Source: Octopus vulgaris (taxonomy: Eukaryota). From it: a DNA stretch of 64,000 nucleotides. Shown here one piece after another: positions 5,339 to 48,821 of the stretch; position 1 is the first letter of the stretch; each line of letters starts with the position of its first letter. The translations under genes were made by a program, and so were the position numbers. The stretch spans positions 26,102,001-26,166,000 of the forward strand of contig OX597834.1 in NCBI GenBank assembly GCA_951406725.2. The letters run 5' to 3'. The notes under the pieces are model-generated. The model saw only the letters and a list, made by a program, of their open reading frames with translations, did not search any database and was not told the DNA's origin.

Positions 5339-25608
<20,270 letters not shown>

Positions 25609-28268: not shown

Positions 28269-29366
28269 GTTAATGAATGTTAGCACATCAGTATTGAAGT
28301 TTAGCACACTAGAGATTCGATAGAATGGTTTAGTGTAGGTTGCCAGCACCTGTACCAAAGCAAGTATTTTTGCATGTGAGGTGGAAGTGTGTGCTATTTT
28401 GTTTTTATTATTACTACTACTACATTTAAGGTGGCAAGTTGGCAGAGTCATCAGCATGTTGGACAAAATGCTTAGTGGTATTTCATCCATCTTTACGTTC
28501 CGAGTTCAAATTCTGCCAAGGTCAATTTGGCCTTTCATACTTTTGGGGTCAATTAAAATGAGTACCAGCCAAGTACTGGGGGTCAAACTTGCTTGCTTTG
28601 TGCTAAAATTTAAAATTAACATTTCTACTACATTTTTCTACTTTTAAAATTTGGCACTGCTTAGAATTTTGTGTCCTGCTCACACTACACCGCTGATTCA
28701 ATGATAATAACAATAATAAATTATTATTATTATTATTATTATTCCAGCTTTTTACATTCTGTATTAGGAAAGGCATCCAGCTTTAGAAACCATGCCAATG
28801 CAGACAGCAGAGGCTGATGCAGTTTTCTGACTTACCAGATCCTGTTAAACTGTCCAAGCTGGTGGTCAGTGTGGAAACTGGGGATAGATGAGTGGTTCGT
28901 AAGAACTGTACAAGTCATGTACAGGGATGCTGTCAGTAAGGTGAGGATCGGCAACAAGTATAGTGAAGAATTCTGGGTAGAAGTAGGGGTTCCCTAAGGA
29001 TCAGTCCTCAGCCCCCTCTTATTCAAGCTTATTTCCCCTGGGTATGTGAAATTTATCCCTTGTTTGAGAACCTCTGTTTTACAATGTGTTCTAATAATAA
29101 TACATTTTTGGGAGGAACTGAATCTCAAAGCAGATAAAGCTATAAGTGATAGTCTTTTATCTTCTACTTGTTTCAACCATTAGATGGTGGTCTTACTGGA
29201 ACACTGCCTTGAAGAATTTTTTAATACTATTACCACTAAGGCCAATTTTGGCTTTCATTCTTTTGGAGTTGGTAAAATAAGTACCAGTGACGTACTGAGG
29301 TTGATGTTATCAACTACTCCCCTCCCTAAGTTTCAAGCCTTGTGCCTCTAGCAGAAAAGATTATTA

Positions 29367-29524
29367 TTATTCAAATTCAACTGAATCTTCCAAGGAACTT
29401 TCATACATCGTTAAATGACCACTATTTTTCAATGCCACATATGCTTCTTCAGCTCTGTTCTTCAATACTTTGAGATTGTTGACTGTCAGTGACAATTCTT
29501 CAGAAGGCATCTCCAACAGCATAC
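29367..29524 (-). CDS. Triple-MLLE protein exon 4 (MLLEMPSEELSLTVNNLKVLKNRAEEAYVALK...EFE*)
   Basis: tttcag| acceptor; TAA at 29369-29367. Confidence 0.9.
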
Positions 29525-30611
29525 CTGAAATATAGAAAGACTAACAATAAGTAAACGTAACACTGTCATATTGCTGATTATTGAATCCCACTCCCTACAA
29601 AACTCAGGGCGAAACACTGCCAACCCACTTTCCACTGACATAAGTGCTGGTTGGTTGATTTCTCCAGTCACACTTTACATAATACATATTAATAGAGAGA
29701 GATACATCCTATTCTTATTCTAAAAACTACTTTCAGAGCATCCACCACCATTACTAATTTGGTCACCTAATTAGTAGAAACTATCTACTTCCTCAAGAGA
29801 GTCTCCTGGGCATTTGAGAGAGTTTAAGTCCCTCATGCTTTTAGCACTTCGTGTTCCTGTGAATCTGCCACACACAAAAGCAACCTTATCTGATAACCTA
29901 CCCACAATTCCACTGCATCTCTTATGTGTCCATAGCTTACACTTGGTGCAGCAAATGGAATCACGTCCCACTCCTTTTCTACATATTGAACAGGGCCATT
30001 TGCCAGCCAGAATGAGAGTCTTATCTCCTTTCTCACTAACAACTTTAGTCTTAACTAAGTTAACTTTAAGGCCCTTTGATTCCAGATTTTGCTTCCAAAC
30101 CCAGAACTTCTCCAATTCTGCTTCAGATTCTGCAATAAGGGCAAGATCATCAGCATACAGTAGTTCCCATGGGCATCCAGTTTTGAATTCAATGGTTATG
30201 GCCTAGAGAACTATGATGAATAAGAGAGGACTAAAAACTGATCCCTGGTGTACTTCAACTTGTACATTAAATTCATCACTGTATTCAAGGCCAACTCTCA
30301 TCTTATTGACAGCATCATGGTACATGGCTTGAACTGCTCCAACAAGCCACTCCTCCACTCCTAGCTTACTTAGAGACCATCAAATAAAATGAGGAACCCT
30401 GTTAGAAGCTTTCTCCAGGTCGATGAAAGCTAAGTACAATAGCTTACTTTTGGCAATTGTTCTCACTATGAAGATGGCATCTGTAGTACTTCTCCCAGGA
30501 ACAAAACCAAACTGCATTTCATCTAGTTTAATTATATCCCTAATTAGTTGAGATATAACTCTCTGTAATTTTCATGACCTGATCTAGCAGTTTGATACCT
30601 TTGTAGTTGTT

Positions 30612-30643
<32 letters not shown>

Positions 30644-33600
30644 CGTATGTATGTATAATGGCGGCTAGCTGGCAGAATCGTTAGCATGCCAGGCGAAAAG
30701 CTTAGCAGTATTTTGTCTGTCGCTACGCTCTGAGTTCAAATTCCGCCAAGGTCGACTTTACCTTTCATCCTTTCGGGGTCGATTAAATAAGTACCAGTTA
30801 CAGACTGGGGTCGATATAATCGACTTAATCCGTTTGTCTGTCCTTGTTTGTCCTCTCTGTGTTTAGCCCCTTGTGGGTAGCAAAGAAATAGGTATGTATG
30901 TATAATGTAACAAAACTATGTTTATATAGCAAGTTTCATGTCACTGTAATCATCAGGCAAGAATTGTTACACCTTGGTTTGATGGTATATTTATATTTGT
31001 TGGTATTGTATGTGATTAATATGACACTGTAATAGTGTGTGTGTTGACAAATAATTTTTGAATGTACAAAACTAATATTTAATAAAGACTATATATAACT
31101 ATCTGAACTGATACATACCAGTAATTTTTTCAGCTAATTTTGGAGAAAACCACATAGTGACTTGTGAGTAGATAGCATCTCCTTTGTCATCCAAACAATT
31201 TTCTTCTTTTATTTCTGTATCACAAGCAGAAGATGATATAAGACCAATTGACTGAAGGTAGGTCAGTCGAGCTTTACAGATGGCAGATTTTAAGAGATCT
31301 TCATTAATTAGAGATTGTCTTAGAAAATTCTTATCTCCTTCTAACAGCATTCCTAGAAAGACAAAAGCAATCTATGTAGGTATGTATATATGTGTGTGTG
31401 TGTGTGTGTTTATATATGTGTGTGAATATATGTATATATACATTACAGTGTGCAGGGTAGAACATATATCTCATTTATTTTGGTTAATTTTATTAACCTT
31501 TAAAAAATTTTAATTCCATCATCATCATCATTTAATGTCCATTTTCCACGCTGGCATGGATCGGATGGTTTGACCAGCGGTGGGAGGCTGCATCAATTCC
31601 AGTCTGATTTGGCCTGATTTCTATGGCTGGATGCCCTTTTTAATACAAACCACTTTACAGAATGTACTGGGTGCTTTTAATGTGCAACCAACCTGAGCAC
31701 TTACATGGTACTTCCATGAGTGCTTATTGCAGGGAGTAAAAGATTAGGAACCAATGTTTTAATTTATGTAATAAAGCACCTTGCATGTTATTCCTTTACT
31801 CTTTACTCTTTTACTTGTTTCAGTCATTTGACTGTGGCCATGCTGGAGCACCGCCTTTAGTCGAGCAAATCGACCCCAGGACTTATTCTTTGTAAGCCTA
31901 GTACTTATTCTATCGGTCTCTTGCCGAACCGCTAAGTTACGGTGACGTAAACACACCAGCATCGGTTGTCAAGCGATGTTGGGGGGACAAACACAGACGC
32001 ACAAACATATACACACACATATATATATATACATATATACGACGGGCTTCTTTCAGTTTCCGTCTACCAAATCCACTCACAAGGCTTTGGTCGGCCCGAG
32101 GCTATAGTGGAAGACACTTGCCCAAGGTGCCACGCAGTGGGACTGAACCCAGAACCATGTGGTTGGTAAACAAGCTACTTACCACACAGCCACTCCTACG
32201 TTATGAGGCAGTCTGAATAACTTTGGTGTATATTATAGTGCAGCCTATAGCTTTGATGTATAAACTAAAGCGGCCAACACATCTGATTTGTTTAACAAAG
32301 CACTTTACGGATTTGATGTTTGTTATCAAAATATTTGTACAAACCTGTTATTTTCGCACAATGTACAGGCTCAATTGTAGCTACTTTATCAAAGAGTTTC
32401 TCAGAATCTTCATCCGTCCATTCAACAGAGTTATCAATGGGTCTGAATATAGAAAAAGAATAAAATAACAAATTTGAAAAATAGCAACAATCTTACTTTT
32501 GGAAAGTGATGCCTTTGAAATATCCCCTACACCACCAACATATCAACTCTTTCTCCTGTTCTCTCTATCTCCCTCTTGCTCTCATCTCTCTCTATCTATC
32601 TATCTATTTGTCTGTCTGTCTGCCTACCTACCTACCTATCTGCCTGTCTATCTATCTATCTCTCTTTTACTTGTTTCAGTCATTTGACTGCGGCCATGCT
32701 GGAGCACCGCCTTTAATCGAGCAACTCGACCCCGGGACTTATTCTTTTGTAAGCCCAGTACTTATTCTATCGGTCTCTTTTGCCGAACCGCTAAGTAATG
32801 GGGACATAAACATACCAGCATCGGTTGTCAAGCAATGCTAGGGACACACACATGTATATATATATATATATATATATACATATATACGACATGCTTCTTT
32901 CAGTTTCCGTCTACCAAATCCACTCACAAGGCTTTGGTCGGCCCAAGGCTATAGTAGAAGACACTTGCCCAAGGTGCCACGCAGTGGGACTGAACCCAGA
33001 ACCATGTGGTTGGTAAACAAGTTACTTACCACACAGCCACTCCTTCTACTGGCAGAATTTGAACTCAGAACATGACATACCAGTATACTAATGGTTCTGC
33101 CAGCTTGCTGCCTTGCACTAAATTAATAATCCTTTCTACTATAGGGACAAGGCCTGAAATTTGGAGTGGGGAATAGTTGATTACAATGACCCCAGTGTTC
33201 AACTGGCACTTATTTTATCAACCCTGAAAGGGTGAAAGGCAAAGTCAACCCCAGCAGCATTTGAACTCAGAACATAAGGACAAACAAAACGCTGCTAAGT
33301 GTTTCTCCCAGTGTGCTAACGATTCTGCCAGCTTGCCACCTTACATTAGCTAAATAATAACAGTTATTTTATTAAATTTTTCATTGTTTTCAAAATTAAT
33401 TGAAACAAAGATAGCATATTTCAATGGAAGCCATCATCATCATGCATCCATACATACTTGAAAATATAGATTTGCTAGGATTTTCTAAGAACAAAAAAAA
33501 CAAAACATATCCTCCAAATCCAATCTATAAGCACAGGGATTCCAAACCAGAGTCCATATGGCCCTTGAGGGCTCATATAAGATTTTCTTATTAAAATTTA

Positions 33601-35029
33601 TGTGCAATAAACATATCCTCCAAATCCAATCTATAAGCACAGGGATTCCAAACCAGAGTCCATATGGCCCTTGAGGGCTCATATAAGATTTTCTTATTAA
33701 AATTTATGTGCAATAAATTGCTTTTACTTCTATAATACACAAACTAATTAAAAAAAATTTAATACAATTCCTAATATTTAATTACAAAAATACAGTAGGT
33801 TTGTTATTTTTATATATATATACAACAAATGGTTAAGGCGGTCCAGTTGAGAAAAATAGGAATCAAAGGGGTCGATAGGCAAAGAATGGTTGAGAACCAC
33901 TGTATTAGCAACACAGAAAAAAAATTGTAAGACAATCCAAAGACTCCACCTAAGATTCCTTAAATGAATAAATGCACACCCATCTGTTTGAGTGCCTCCA
34001 CAAAGACATACATAAAAAGTAATGAGCAAACACACGTACAGACTAGGTATTAAAGAGACAGACTCACATAGAACAAATATATTTCTTTATTGCCCACAAG
34101 GGGCTAAACATAGAGGAGACAAACAAAGGGATTAAGTCGATTACATCGACCCCAGTGCGTAACTGGTACTTTATTTATCGACCCCGAAAGGATGAAAGGC
34201 AAAGTCGACCTCGGCGGAATTTGAACTCAGAACGTAGCGACAGACGAAATACTTATTTCTTTATTACCCACAAGGGGCTAAACACAGAGGGGACAAACAA
34301 GGACAGACAAACGGATTAAGTCGATTACATCGAACCCAGTGCGCAACTAGTACTTAATTTATCGACCCCGAAAGGATGAAAGGCAAAGTCGACCTCGGCG
34401 TAATTTGAACTCAGAACGTAACGGCAGACGAAATACAGCTGCGCATTTCGCCCGGCGTGCTAACGTTTCTGCCAGCTCGCCATAGAACATAAATAGAAGT
34501 GAACACACCCACTTCTATGCACACCACTAACTGAACTACATACTTACAAATTCCAAGAACTGTCTTAAAAAAGTTTTGGAACTTAGTTAACCGGCCGACT
34601 TGAACTCCATAAAGAACTTAAACAAATCTCAAAGAAAACACACACACACTCACACATATATCGTAAGTAGTTCATATATCCGAAAAAGAAGCACACTCTA
34701 AGGCATTAGAACAAAAAAATTTTTTTAAAGAAGTTGTTAAGTTATGGCCAGTCATAGCGTGACCATTGGTTTCGCACCTATAAGGCACTTAAAAGTATAG
34801 GCGAGTCGTCAGGATCAAAACAAGATGGAATGAACAGGCTTTAATCAAAAATCAGAGCAATTGTTTCTGTTTATTGATAACAGCTGTTAGTTGCTGAATT
34901 TTCCCTATCATACTATTATAGAAATATCATATATATATATATATATATATGATCCAGCGACAGCTGTATACCCGTAGGCCACCAGATGAGTGACTTTAAG
35001 AGCACTGCTGGCTAGATCAAGTCCAGTTT

Positions 35030-35081
<52 letters not shown>

Positions 35082-36446
35082 AGCAAAATAGCTAGTTGTA
35101 AAATCTCAAGAAGAGATCGAGTAGTAACTATATTAAACAGTAAAGCCAGTCGCCACATCGAAGTGACTGTTGAATGTTACTAGTTTAACCCCAGGCAGAT
35201 TTTCTGCCAGCTGGTTATCGGTGCAACACTCTGCACCCTTTATATACAATATATTGTTAGCAGGAGAGACGAACCCTTACTACCCTCTAGCAGATAACAG
35301 GATCGCGATACTGAATCCATTTCAGGCTATTTGGCTCGTCCTTAGTCGCGGGCAACATAAAATATGGTCCGGCCAATACTTGCTTTAACAAGAAAAAAGA
35401 AAGGATGAAAAGCAAAGTCGACTACAAACTAATTTAAATTAATTATTTCTAACATAGGCATATGTTAACAATTTACACGGCCACCAGTACTTAAACTGAA
35501 AGTTGACTCTGATGAAATTTGAACTCAGAATATAACGAACCATAACAAATCTGTCACCCTTAAACTAAAGGAGTAAGGAATCCCTAACAGCTAATAATTA
35601 TAGAATAAACAACACTAATAAAGGTTTCTCATTTAGGCGCAAGGTCAGCAATTTTGAAAGAATGTGGCTAGTTGATTCTATCGATCCTAATATTGGTTTT
35701 ATTGACACTCCGATATGATAAATGGTTGACTTGACTTCCACAGAATTTGAACTCGGAACGGAATAAACCCATCGCCCCTAAACTAGTAAAAAAAAAAACA
35801 CTAATAATAATTCTTTCTGATTTAGGCACAAGGCCTGAAATTTTGCGCAAAGAGGGTAATCGATTGCAACCATCTCAGTGCTTAAATGGAACTTGTATCA
35901 TCAACCCCAAAAGGATGGAAAACAAATTTTGATAGAAAGCTAGCAGTTTTAGTTTGGGGGAAGGGGGGATTGATCCCAGTACTCTAACAGTATTTCATTT
36001 ACGGGCCCCGAAAGGATGACATGCTAAGTCGACTTCGACATGGTTTGAACGCAAAACGTAAATTTGGAAAAAATAAAAAAGAAAGAAACCAACAACAACT
36101 AATAATAATAACGATACCATAAACAACTACTGATTGTTATAATATTAATGTTTCAACAAGATTAAGAGTAAAATACTAACTGTGGTGATGTGATTTGACT
36201 GTGAGAAGGTTGATCTGTATAAAGGGTTCGTAGCACCTGCGATATCCGCATCTGTAATTTCGGTCCATTTTGCAACATCGCTAAAACCTCTTTTTCTCCA
36301 CATTCCAACAGAATTCCGGTGATTTTAGAAACCAGACTATAAGTCAACTGAGGGAACCTTGTCGTGATCTGCGAATGCAGATGGTTACCCAAACTTTCCA
36401 GTGTTGTCATTAATAGTTGTTGTTTTGGCGTTTTCTCCTCGCCCAT
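29367..36446 (-). CDS. Stand-alone triple MLLE (PABC) domain protein, 4 coding exons, 251 aa
   Basis: Join complement(36446-36181, 32442-32345, 31352-31119, 29524-29367) = 756 nt. GT-AG introns, phases 2,1,1, open frame. Contains three repeats with KITGILLE, KITGMLLE and KITGMLLE, each with MLLE-like flanking helices. In-frame TGA just upstream of the ATG. Confidence 0.9.
29770..30612 (-). mobile_element. RTE-clade LINE ORF2 fragment, in intron 3 of the triple-MLLE gene
   Basis: RT motifs (QFGFVPGRST, AFIDLEKA, HQGSV.SPL, ELLYADDLAL) and Cys-rich WPCSICRKGVG..C.KC..W.HKRCSG; frameshifted. Confidence 0.9.
31119..31352 (-). CDS. Triple-MLLE protein exon 3 (MLLEGDK...KLAEKIT)
   Basis: ttctag| acceptor, G|gtatgt donor; symmetric phase 1-1, 234 nt. 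Confidence 0.92.
31797..32200 (-). mobile_element. SINE family A
   Basis: Full-length consensus copy. Confidence 0.88.
32345..32442 (-). CDS. Triple-MLLE protein exon 2 (PIDNSVEWTDEDSEKLFDKVATIEPVHCAKIT)
   Basis: ttcag| acceptor after a T-rich tract; G|gtttgt donor; ends within KITG. Confidence 0.88.
32662..33043 (-). mobile_element. SINE family A
   Basis: Full-length consensus copy. Confidence 0.88.
33503..33717. repeat. Exact tandem duplication, about 106 bp x2
   Basis: AAACATATCCTCC...TGTGCAATAAA twice. Confidence 0.9.
34078..34481 (-). mobile_element. SINE family B, tandem dimer
   Basis: One head plus two bodies. Confidence 0.85.
36181..36446 (-). CDS. Triple-MLLE protein exon 1 (MLLE repeat 1: LGNHLHSQI...SKITGILLECGEKEVLAML..)
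   Basis: ATG at 36446; donor CA|gttagt. Confidence 0.88.
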
Positions 36447-36872
36447 TCTGTCACAGCTGTAACATCATACACATACATTCGCGGAATAAATCTTAAAGCC
36501 GATGATATAACTTCCGGAAAGAAATTATTAATTTTTAAAAACAGATATCAAAGTTTTTTCTACTAATAATTTTTTCGGAAACTAACGACAACTAAAAAAT
36601 TATATAGTACGATAAAATATTATATACAGTAAGCGGTGGCGATGTAAACTGCCTCGTTTCATTCGTTCCTCAAAATTTTGTATGATTTCATTTATAGTTT
36701 CGTTTTCTCAAAAATTCGTTTCGGCGTTTCTGTAGAACCAATTCGTGTTTTCGCATTGTCTATTAAGTTGGTACCCGTTTTGCTGCTAGATTCATGAGAA
36801 CAAAGTTATTCAATATTTTTGAGATTAATAGATGTTTAAACGAAAATTACATGTTTATACATAGAGAATTAA

Positions 36873-47066: not shown

Positions 47067-47210
47067 GCTGATAATTTTAACTGTTTTGCCAGATCTAATT
47101 TTATTTGCATTAAAATCATAGCAGTTAATTCATAATTTTGATTTTGGCTTCTTTGTAAAATATTTTTTATTGTATTTCATAATATAGTTTTCTCTGTTTG
47201 GAACTTACAG

Positions 47211-48821
47211 GAGACTGGAAACACAACTAAAGACAAATCTGAAGAAAACAAAGAAAGACGGAAACGTGGAAAACTTTCTGCTGAAGAGGAAGAGTTGCAC
47301 AGAAGATCAGTGCAGAGGGTTTTAGCAGAAGCTATTACCCATGATGCACCTATAGCAGATGTAGAGATCATTATAAAATATGGTGGTGATGTCAATGGAA
47401 ATGTGAATCGCGGTCTGAAACCTATTCATTATGCCTCCTATGCTGACAATACAGATATTATTCGAATTTTGTTAAAACATGGAGCTGACATCAATGCTAG
47501 GGATGACGTTGGTTACACACCTCTTCATCTATGTGCACGAAAAGGTCACTTGAAGAGCATGAAATACTTGATAAAATGTGGGGCCAAAATCAACATCGAA
47601 GCTCATGAATATACTCCTAAACAATCTAAACCTATTTTGCCTGATGACCAAGAACAAAATGAAAACCAAGACCAAGGACAAAACCAAAGTGCATTAAATA
47701 CAACGAATGAGCAAAGTTCACCAGCTGTAACCAATGATGCGTCCGGTCCAACGCCACAGACAGTCCTAGAAGATTTAACAATTGAGCCAATAAATTTAGC
47801 GTTAGAAAACAACCATGTAGCTATAGTAAAACTCCTCTTGGAGAACGGTGCTAAAGCTAATCGCAGATATTTCATGGGTTTTGAAATAAATCTTGTGCCA
47901 CTTCAGAATATTGAATGCCTCGATCTCTTGCTTCAGTATGGTGCTGACCCAAACTCAATAAACCGATGTGGCGTCACCCCCTTAATGAAAGCAGCAAAAG
48001 AGAATGAAATCTTTGCTACTCGTCTGTTGTTGAGGTATGGTGCTGATGTCAATTTACAATGTCCTGAAAGATTTGAGCAGAAAACAGCTCTGCATTTTGC
48101 AATCGAGGCTGGAAACCGAACCATTGCCAGAACTTTATTGTTACATCATGCACAAACATCAAAATTTCCTAACTATAAATATAATGTTCTACATACTGCT
48201 GTCCTTACTGACCGAGAGGATTTAGTTGAACTAGTTCTTTTATTTCCCATCGATGTTGATGAGGTTACCGATGACAACTGTACGGCCCTGATGATGGCTT
48301 GTGCAGCAACAAATACGATGAACCAAAGAGAAATAATAAACCTATTGCTTCAAGCTGGCGCCAATCCAAACAGACATGCAGATATTATTAATTACATTGC
48401 TCCTTGTTTTTCACCAATTGTTGAATACCTTAGGAACCAAGACTCTATCAGTTATGATGTTATTCTCAATTTGATTCAACATGGTGCCATAGTTCACTTT
48501 GGTGGTTTTACAACAGTTGTGAGGAAGAGAAATCCTTTTGGAGTTTTGCATTATTTTGATAAAATTTCTAAGGATGAGAAACTTCTTAAACTTCTCATGG
48601 AGGCTTGTAGTCTTTTTGATCTCTATGCCATTGATCGTTGTAGAGAGTTCTCTAACGAAGAGAAAGAGTATTTTGAAGAATTAGGAAAGAAGCCACTCCC
48701 TTTGAAGAATTCAATCCGGTTTTTAATAAGGAATTTGTTAATGCCAAATCTATTACTAAAAATTAATAAGTTGCCATTACCTGAATTTCTAAAAAAGTAT
48801 CTTGCATTCGAAGCGATATAA
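47211..48821 (+). CDS. Ankyrin repeat and SOCS box protein (ASB-like), main coding exon; about 540 aa with MADK
   Basis: ttacag| acceptor, open frame ETGNTT... to TAA at 48821. Multiple ankyrin repeats (GLKPIHYAS, GYTPLHLCA, GVTPLMKAA, KTALHFAI, CTALMMAC). C-terminal SOCS box PLPLKNSIRFLIR...LPLPEFLKKYL. Confidence 0.93.
   Translation, partial: ETGNTTKDKSEENKERRKRGKLSAEEEELHRRSVQRVLAEAITHDAPIADVEIIIKYGGDVNGNVNRGLKPIHYASYADNTDIIRILLKHGADINARDDVGYTPLHLCARKGHLKSMKYLIKCGAKINIEAHEYTPKQSKPILPDDQEQNENQDQGQNQSALNTTNEQSSPAVTNDASGPTPQTVLEDLTIEPINLALENNHVAIVKLLLENGAKANRRYFMGFEINLVPLQNIECLDLLLQYGADPNSINRCGVTPLMKAAKENEIFATRLLLRYGADVNLQCPERFEQKTALHFAIEAGNRTIARTLLLHHAQTSKFPNYKYNVLHTAVLTDREDLVELVLLFPIDVDEVTDDNCTALMMACAATNTMNQREIINLLLQAGANPNRHADIINYIAPCFSPIVEYLRNQDSISYDVILNLIQHGAIVHFGGFTTVVRKRNPFGVLHYFDKISKDEKLLKLLMEACSLFDLYAIDRCREFSNEEKEYFEELGKKPLPLKNSIRFLIRNLLMPNLLLKINKLPLPEFLKKYLAFEAI

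Follow-up and report, generated by a model that had tools for sequence, protein, structure and literature searches.

The MLLE domain is well known, and the available text of the papers that treat it places it in PABPC, UBR5 and fungal Rrm4 only (PMC9249222, PMC11572963, PMC12852828, PMC4574140, PMC3018788). Two of them count two MLLE proteins in humans (PMC11572963, PMC12852828), and one calls Rrm4 the first protein with several MLLE domains (PMC9249222, 2022). The ligands reported in this literature are all PAM2 or PAM2-like motifs. Here we describe a gene in a 64,000-nucleotide stretch of Octopus vulgaris DNA (the window, whose positions serve as the gene coordinates below) that encodes three MLLE domains and no RRM or HECT domain. 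What is new is not the domain but a conserved group of MLLE-only orthologs across animals, to which the octopus gene belongs. An initial annotation of the window had supposed that no such family was described, and literature searches, run also with six member gene ids, bear this out: they found no description of an MLLE-only family, brief mention in subscription papers or supplements being possible. We propose, at a probability of roughly 0.55, that the protein is a beads-on-a-string adaptor with several predicted sockets for PAM2-type motifs, its repeats being unequal.

Results

The octopus gene is complete and encodes three MLLE domains

The gene lies on the minus strand in four exons, with GT donors, AG acceptors and matching phases of 2, 1 and 1. 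Coding exon 1 (36181..36446) begins with the ATG at 36446, encodes residues 1-89 and contains the entire first repeat (residues 15-77, about 36404-36216; 34.5 bits against PF00658). Exon 2 (32345..32442; residues 89-122) carries the first half of repeat 2, exon 3 (31119..31352; residues 122-200) its second half, a linker and the first half of repeat 3, and exon 4 (29367..29524; residues 200-251 and the stop) the second half of repeat 3 and an acidic tail. Exons 2 and 3 each end in a phase-1 intron within the KITG/MLLE signature, of repeats 2 and 3 respectively. The spliced open reading frame (ORF) of 756 nucleotides yields 251 residues plus a stop, and the product is identical over its whole length to database protein P0001 (O. 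vulgaris CAI9738399.1; O. sinensis XP_029649267.1), so the intact four-exon frame of the initial annotation holds. The 249-residue protein of O. bimaculoides clusters with P0001, and the Argonauta ortholog has 290 residues. The genome contains one such locus, and the gene is single-copy.

Single contigs, free of introns, bridge all four exons in X1, X7 and X13, putative RNA runs from three studies (P1, P3 and P4); in the fourth run aligned, X3, the gene is in pieces, giving all-exon bridging in 3/4. The contig joints fall one and five bases off the called boundaries, where identical letters fit either side, and two runs of another organism show splicing from the same donor into exon 2 sequence. 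Upstream, contigs continue unspliced through the ATG into a 5' untranslated region contiguous with exon 1 (36447..36654 on the minus strand, as far as the window-gene contigs extend; the limits are 36553 in X1, 36563 in X7 and 36654 in X3), and contigs of relatives extend beyond 36700. An in-frame stop lies eight codons above the ATG. Given the all-exon contigs and this stop, an origin as part of a longer RRM or HECT gene is nearly excluded; the junctions anticipated in the initial annotation are thus bridged in putative RNA, and upstream RRM exons are very unlikely.

The 3' untranslated region (28996..29366 on the minus strand, by contig extent) enters a repeat-derived stretch duplicated at 23535-23993. 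This local duplication (459 bp, 97% identical, 28763-29221 against 23535-23993) contains a retroelement-like fragment. Among annotated isoforms, the 205-residue P0002 lacks half of repeat 2 because of an internal acceptor at 31214 in exon 3, and P0006 uses a donor inside exon 4 (29408 region) with a last exon from about 27680. The alternative tail of the O. bimaculoides isoform P0004 was not found in the window.

On the 251-residue protein, Pfam family PF00658 matches three stretches (105.4 bits, E 1.6e-30, cut-off 27), the number that had been forecast, and the three repeat motifs quoted in the initial annotation are all present, with a KITGMLLE-type signature in every repeat. The only other Pfam family on the protein is the related PF23182, at repeat 2, and the scan shows no RRM or HECT domain, again in line with the earlier description. 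The protein is acidic, with an isoelectric point (pI) of 4.9. AlphaFold2, run on a 39-sequence alignment, predicts three four-helix domains (residues 15-77, 99-157 and 174-233) with a predicted local distance difference test score (pLDDT) mostly of 85-93 in the blocks and 78.7 as the overall mean. The linkers are low-confidence and the predicted template-modelling score (pTM) is 0.32, so no fixed domain arrangement is predicted; the model depicts independent domains on flexible linkers. The top 14 Foldseek ranks shown are all MLLE structures from PABP and UBR5, with probability 1.00 and E values of 0.15 or worse, and a family profile run against PDB sequences gave 25 matches, all PABP, UBR5 or Rrm4.

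Compared with Argonauta, the three repeats are identical at 51/62, 45/56 and 43/58 positions (74-82%), and the two linkers at 8/21 and 5/21 (24-38%). All four exon-1 substitutions seen in contigs of relatives are synonymous, against 23% expected by chance in what is a small sample. Taken together, these observations show a gene that is whole, spliced and constrained, not partial.

MLLE-only proteins form an animal family

A reading of this gene as a one-off is not upheld, as the family spans animals. A search with P0001 returned 102 proteins of 138-440 residues, a family profile search 490 proteins at E 1e-15, and the 50% library 92 proteins at E 1e-30, some of these being unrelated multi-MLLE proteins. 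Among 55 homologs scanned of 105, 43 have three or four MLLE stretches and 12 have two, and Pfam found RRM or HECT domains in 0/55. Of 23 family candidates, 17 have three or four stretches and six have two plus a decayed first repeat. Proteins P0308, P0296, P0294, P0307, P0280 and P0261 have lost the first-repeat signature and keep repeats 2 and 3 intact.

Named members come from Cnidaria, Mollusca (cephalopods, bivalves and gastropods), Annelida, Brachiopoda, Nemertea, Echinodermata, Hemichordata and Chordata, the last including amphioxus, lamprey, sharks and rays, chimaera, bichir, sturgeon, gar, teleosts, coelacanth and lungfish; pufferfish, sea urchins and Exaiptasia, as well as octopus, have members. 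No tetrapod, insect or nematode protein is among the named matches (20 representatives given species names, 120 of the 490 matches listed), an absence that falls short of demonstrating loss. The repeat number is three in bilaterian invertebrates and four in amphioxus and non-teleost jawed fishes, and teleosts and Amia retain the first three of those four. Sequence comparison thus indicates that the RRM-free proteins with three or four repeats are orthologous across bilaterians, with cnidarian proteins of the same build.

Isoforms break at the same point of the signature in octopus, scallop, lamprey, bichir, reedfish, gar and four further proteins (11 of 22 regular-expression rows, the remainder being by-catch of the expression or variant motifs), which suggests, as judged from proteins, that an intron within the signature is shared. 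The proteins are acidic in all 42 species considered (pI 4.05-5.5). They carry automatic names such as "uncharacterized", "polyadenylate-binding-like" and, in some cases, "PABC domain-containing".

Gene models with several MLLE domains are common in databases: the 41 longer proteins that we examined include MLLE repeats joined to RRM, PHAX, MIF4G, F-box, kinase, LSM14 or RING domains. Four of these models (P0205, P0249, P0253 and P0259) combine a PHAX RNA-binding domain with three or four MLLE domains in one protein, and we know of no earlier account of this architecture.

Repeats group partly by position

Two repeat trees, each resting on 62-64 columns, were compared. Tree 1 had octopus controls only, and ten chosen sequences (near-duplicates or unnamed) and most repeats of a PABP-derived cluster on octopus contig C5 (below) were excluded from it; tree 2 had 23 family proteins and 22 broader control domains. 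Tree 1 separates all 85 family repeats from those of PABP, UBR5 and the C5 cluster (support 95/84); in it, repeat 1 of invertebrates pairs with repeat 2 of vertebrates (99/80), and repeat 2 of cephalopods with repeat 3 of vertebrates (95/99). In tree 2, invertebrate repeat 1 and chordate repeat 2 lie on one side of a branch in 19/19 rows (98/95). The octopus repeats fall outside the animal PABPC group in both trees, and the family is not placed with UBR5. Cnidarian repeats are on the family side (95/84 in tree 1, 73/70 in tree 2), and their placement with the controls is not rejected (p-AU 0.65, approximately unbiased test). Alanine occupies position 606 in 37/37 repeats of the class that unites cephalopod repeat 2 and vertebrate repeat 3. 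These groupings indicate that the repeats are distinct rather than interchangeable: octopus repeat 1 appears to correspond to vertebrate repeat 2, and repeat signatures are shared between molluscs and vertebrates.

The predicted peptide pocket is retained and altered

Contact residues for the PAM2 peptide were taken from the legend to Figure 2 of PMC2854688, in PABPC numbering, and their conservation was counted over 134 repeats from 41 species. Residues lining the aromatic-anchor pocket are well kept (G563 85%, E564 75% with Asp in 13%, F/Y567 95%, T582 99%, L586 96%), with tyrosine at 567 in 60% of family repeats, and so are most further contacts (K580 67%, M584 91%, L585 93%, E587 96%, A610 93%). 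The rim is unlike that of PABP: Q560 is replaced by Glu or Asp in 83%, V613 is found in 22% and K606 in 22%, and H617 is not kept. Among 35 columns with a polar majority, the mean frequency of the top residue is 0.68 in the eight contact columns and 0.28 in the other 27, a difference whose Mann-Whitney p of 0.00015 is optimistic, since columns are non-independent, the species are related and solvent exposure was not considered. By these counts, the putative peptide-contact face is selectively conserved yet altered.

The octopus repeats depart from the pocket in different ways. Positions 564 and 567 are Asn and His in repeat 1, position 563 is Ser in repeat 2, and repeat 3 keeps G563, D564, Y567, K580 and R606. 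We considered loss of K606 as a sign of a dead pocket and dropped it, since PABPC1 tolerates the K606A mutation, which in the available text does not weaken its PAM2 binding (bioRxiv 10.64898/2026.01.10.698208). Autoinhibition was likewise dropped: no canonical PAM2 motif was found within the family proteins, only short FxP strings in 7/42. Elsewhere in the octopus genome, PF07145 gives seven PAM2 matches, six of them above the cut-off and one with an eRF3-like double motif.

Other octopus MLLE loci and neighbouring genes

The view of the window gene as a stand-alone oddity fits neither the old and widespread animal family nor the further RRM-free multi-MLLE ORFs in the same genome. One is the PABP-derived poly-MLLE cluster at C5:130386177-130419010 on the minus strand, with five long frames (426-1793 residues), 54 MLLE matches and a 273-bp period; its frames are annotated as polyadenylate-binding 4-like (P0189 and P0331, the latter with 19 stretches), and no paper on it was found. 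A third RRM-free ORF of MLLE type is an unbroken 342-residue frame at C2:78134238-78135266 on the plus strand, with one Pfam MLLE match and two further, decayed PABPC-like repeats; identities are 33%, 23% and 35%, the signature is lost and there is no RRM. Intronless full-length PABP genes with frames of 643 and 661 residues lie at C23:9276758-9278689 and C10:102744832-102746817, and MLLE exons of a UBR5-like gene are on contig C3.

Within the window, exons of an ODR4-like gene (PF14778) at 11290-21945 on the plus strand stand tail to tail with the MLLE gene. A 559-residue frame at 47142-48821, also on the plus strand, encodes ankyrin repeats and a SOCS box.

Discussion

A proposed adaptor with unequal repeats

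We propose that the octopus protein, with three MLLE domains and no RNA-binding or catalytic part, would bind PAM2-type short motifs of mRNA-regulating proteins. Because the pocket is retained, continued motif binding can be argued, with the groove between helix 2 and helix 3 probably still accepting the aromatic residue of an FxP-type motif. The replacement of Q560 by Glu or Asp and the lost V613 and H617 may have shifted specificity away from that of PABP, much as specificity differs among Rrm4, UBR5 and PABPC1. Different partners or roles for the repeats are argued because the differences between them have long been kept, and under a hierarchy like that of Rrm4 the main site would probably be repeat 3, with repeat 2 (G563S) in an accessory role. 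Precedent for both hierarchy and altered specificity comes from the available text on Rrm4 (PMC9249222, PMC11572963). Lacking an RNA anchor, the protein would work in trans by joining different proteins that bear motifs, and bridging of this kind fits because the linkers are predicted to be flexible. Competition with PABP and UBR5 for motif-bearing proteins would be a side effect.

Several observations weigh against this model. Over 17 scored positions (16 contacts plus G583), agreement of the octopus repeats with octopus PABPC is limited to 8, 10 and 10, compared with 11/17 for UBR5. Glutamine at the Q560 equivalent occurs in only 5/134 family repeats, or fewer, per class shown, and the available text on Rrm4 MLLE3 has this residue needed for peptide binding (Q733A; PMC11572963). 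Most repeat-3 domains of chordates have lost K580 (Asp in 11 and Tyr in 3 of 19), and conservation of G563, T582, L585, L586 and A610 could reflect folding alone. In tree 2 the family is separated from the 22 controls at only 73/70, the repeat-2 class is split into four parts in the free tree (four changes) and the repeat-3 class is scattered (ten changes). Forcing the repeat-2 class together is not rejected (p-AU 0.82) and gains 28 log units over the free tree; because a constrained tree scores better, the free search was imperfect and missed better trees. Finally, the present evidence fits bridging and competition alike. The poor match to PABPC and the serine at the pocket glycine of repeat 2 do away with the initial picture of three equal PAM2 sockets, and for the same reasons a simple sponge seems to us less likely than an adaptor whose repeats are unequal.

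Competition as the main function is the nearest alternative: as a decoy, the protein would bind PAM2 canonically and titrate eRF3, PAIP, TOB, PAN3 or GW182 off mRNA-bound PABP. An RNA-binding-free protein with a nearly invariant signature helix suits this role, the tolerance of K606A by PABPC1 implies that some departures are allowed, and avidity could compensate for weaker single sites. We nevertheless consider it unlikely. PABP is abundant, and a decoy would have to be highly expressed to compete with it; moreover, the repeats have kept position-specific signatures since the protostome/deuterostome split, which interchangeable sponge units need not do, and the near-identical PABP-derived repeats on C5 look more sponge-like. 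The pocket might instead have been re-purposed for a ligand outside the PABP network, such as a basic variant motif or a partner on the ubiquitin-ligase side, as for the UBR5 MLLE. The acidic rim speaks for such a change (Q560 is Glu or Asp in 83% of the 134 repeats, against two Glu in 46 controls), as do tyrosine at 567 and a predicted fold without the first helix, resembling the four-helix form of UBR5. The strongly acidic family proteins would suit it too, and in the available text MLLE1 and MLLE2 of Rrm4 have no known ligand (PMC12852828). What makes this improbable to us is that the residues of the aromatic anchor are the best kept of all, that the trees do not group the family with UBR5, and that the reported MLLE ligands are confined to PAM2 and its like.

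If the locus were only the 3' part of a longer gene resembling PABP or UBR5, or a duplicate without function, this would explain its automatic polyadenylate-binding-like name, the annotated isoforms P0002 and P0004 that disrupt repeats, and the contig of one relative with 318 further bases beyond 36700. Against these stand the in-frame stop above the ATG within transcribed sequence, the presence of PABPC, a second PABP and UBR5 on other contigs, the synonymous exon-1 changes (4/4), and the hundreds of homologs that share its length and build (490 matches at E 1e-15, 120 of them listed). We regard this explanation as highly improbable.

If the adaptor model is extended to the family, a more tentative proposal, which we put at somewhat less than even odds, is that these proteins are a third ancient animal MLLE branch beside PABP and UBR5. 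They would be RNA-free hubs with repeats specialised before the protostome/deuterostome split. In most aquatic animal lineages they would bring different PAM2-type regulators (of translation, deadenylation and silencing) together in complexes or granules, and the human lineage would have lost them. A conserved MLLE-only gene found across eight phyla would mean that poly(A)-linked mRNA control in fishes, molluscs and echinoderms has a participant so far overlooked. The pocket variants that occur naturally could serve to test the MLLE binding code and to find what accessory MLLE domains bind, and, the protein being small and predicted soluble, binding and knockout tests would be direct.

Comparison with known MLLE proteins

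The octopus protein shares the fold and signature of the PABP MLLE domain: 14 MLLE entries were matched by sequence and 25 by profile, and the top PABP chains superpose on the AlphaFold2 model with a root-mean-square deviation of 1.2-1.9 Å over about 59 columns. Unlike PABPC, it has neither RRMs nor a proline-rich linker and has three MLLE domains instead of one; the model lacks the first helix of the PABPC domain, and Q560, V613 and H617 are not kept. The octopus PABPC gene also differs in being intronless and on another contig. The MLLE domain of UBR5/HYD (PDB 1I2T, 3NTW) is similar in its four-helix form and tyrosine at 567, with target-normalised template-modelling scores of 0.90-0.91. However, the octopus protein has no HECT, UBA or UBR box and only 251 residues, as opposed to about 2800, and octopus UBR5 has a phase-0 intron five codons before K580 and does not group with the MLLE-only family in the trees.

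The C5 cluster resembles the window gene in being RRM-free with several MLLE domains, but it is a recent tandem expansion of the PABPC tail, with 75-82% DNA identity to PABPC, with which it groups at 98/94. Its frames hold 4-20 near-identical repeats without a break, and its origin is unrelated to that of the window gene.

Rrm4 of Ustilago maydis (PMC9249222, PMC11572963; PDB 7PZE) differs in being fungal and in having three RRMs. Its MLLE3 has seven helices and needs Q733, the equivalent of Q560, where the animal family mostly has Glu or Asp. The available text gives Rrm4 three MLLE domains per chain with unequal pockets, and its accessory MLLE1 has serine at the pocket glycine (PMC9249222), as octopus repeat 2 does. 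By this comparison, the octopus protein is predicted to work most like the C-terminal platform of Rrm4 minus the RRMs.

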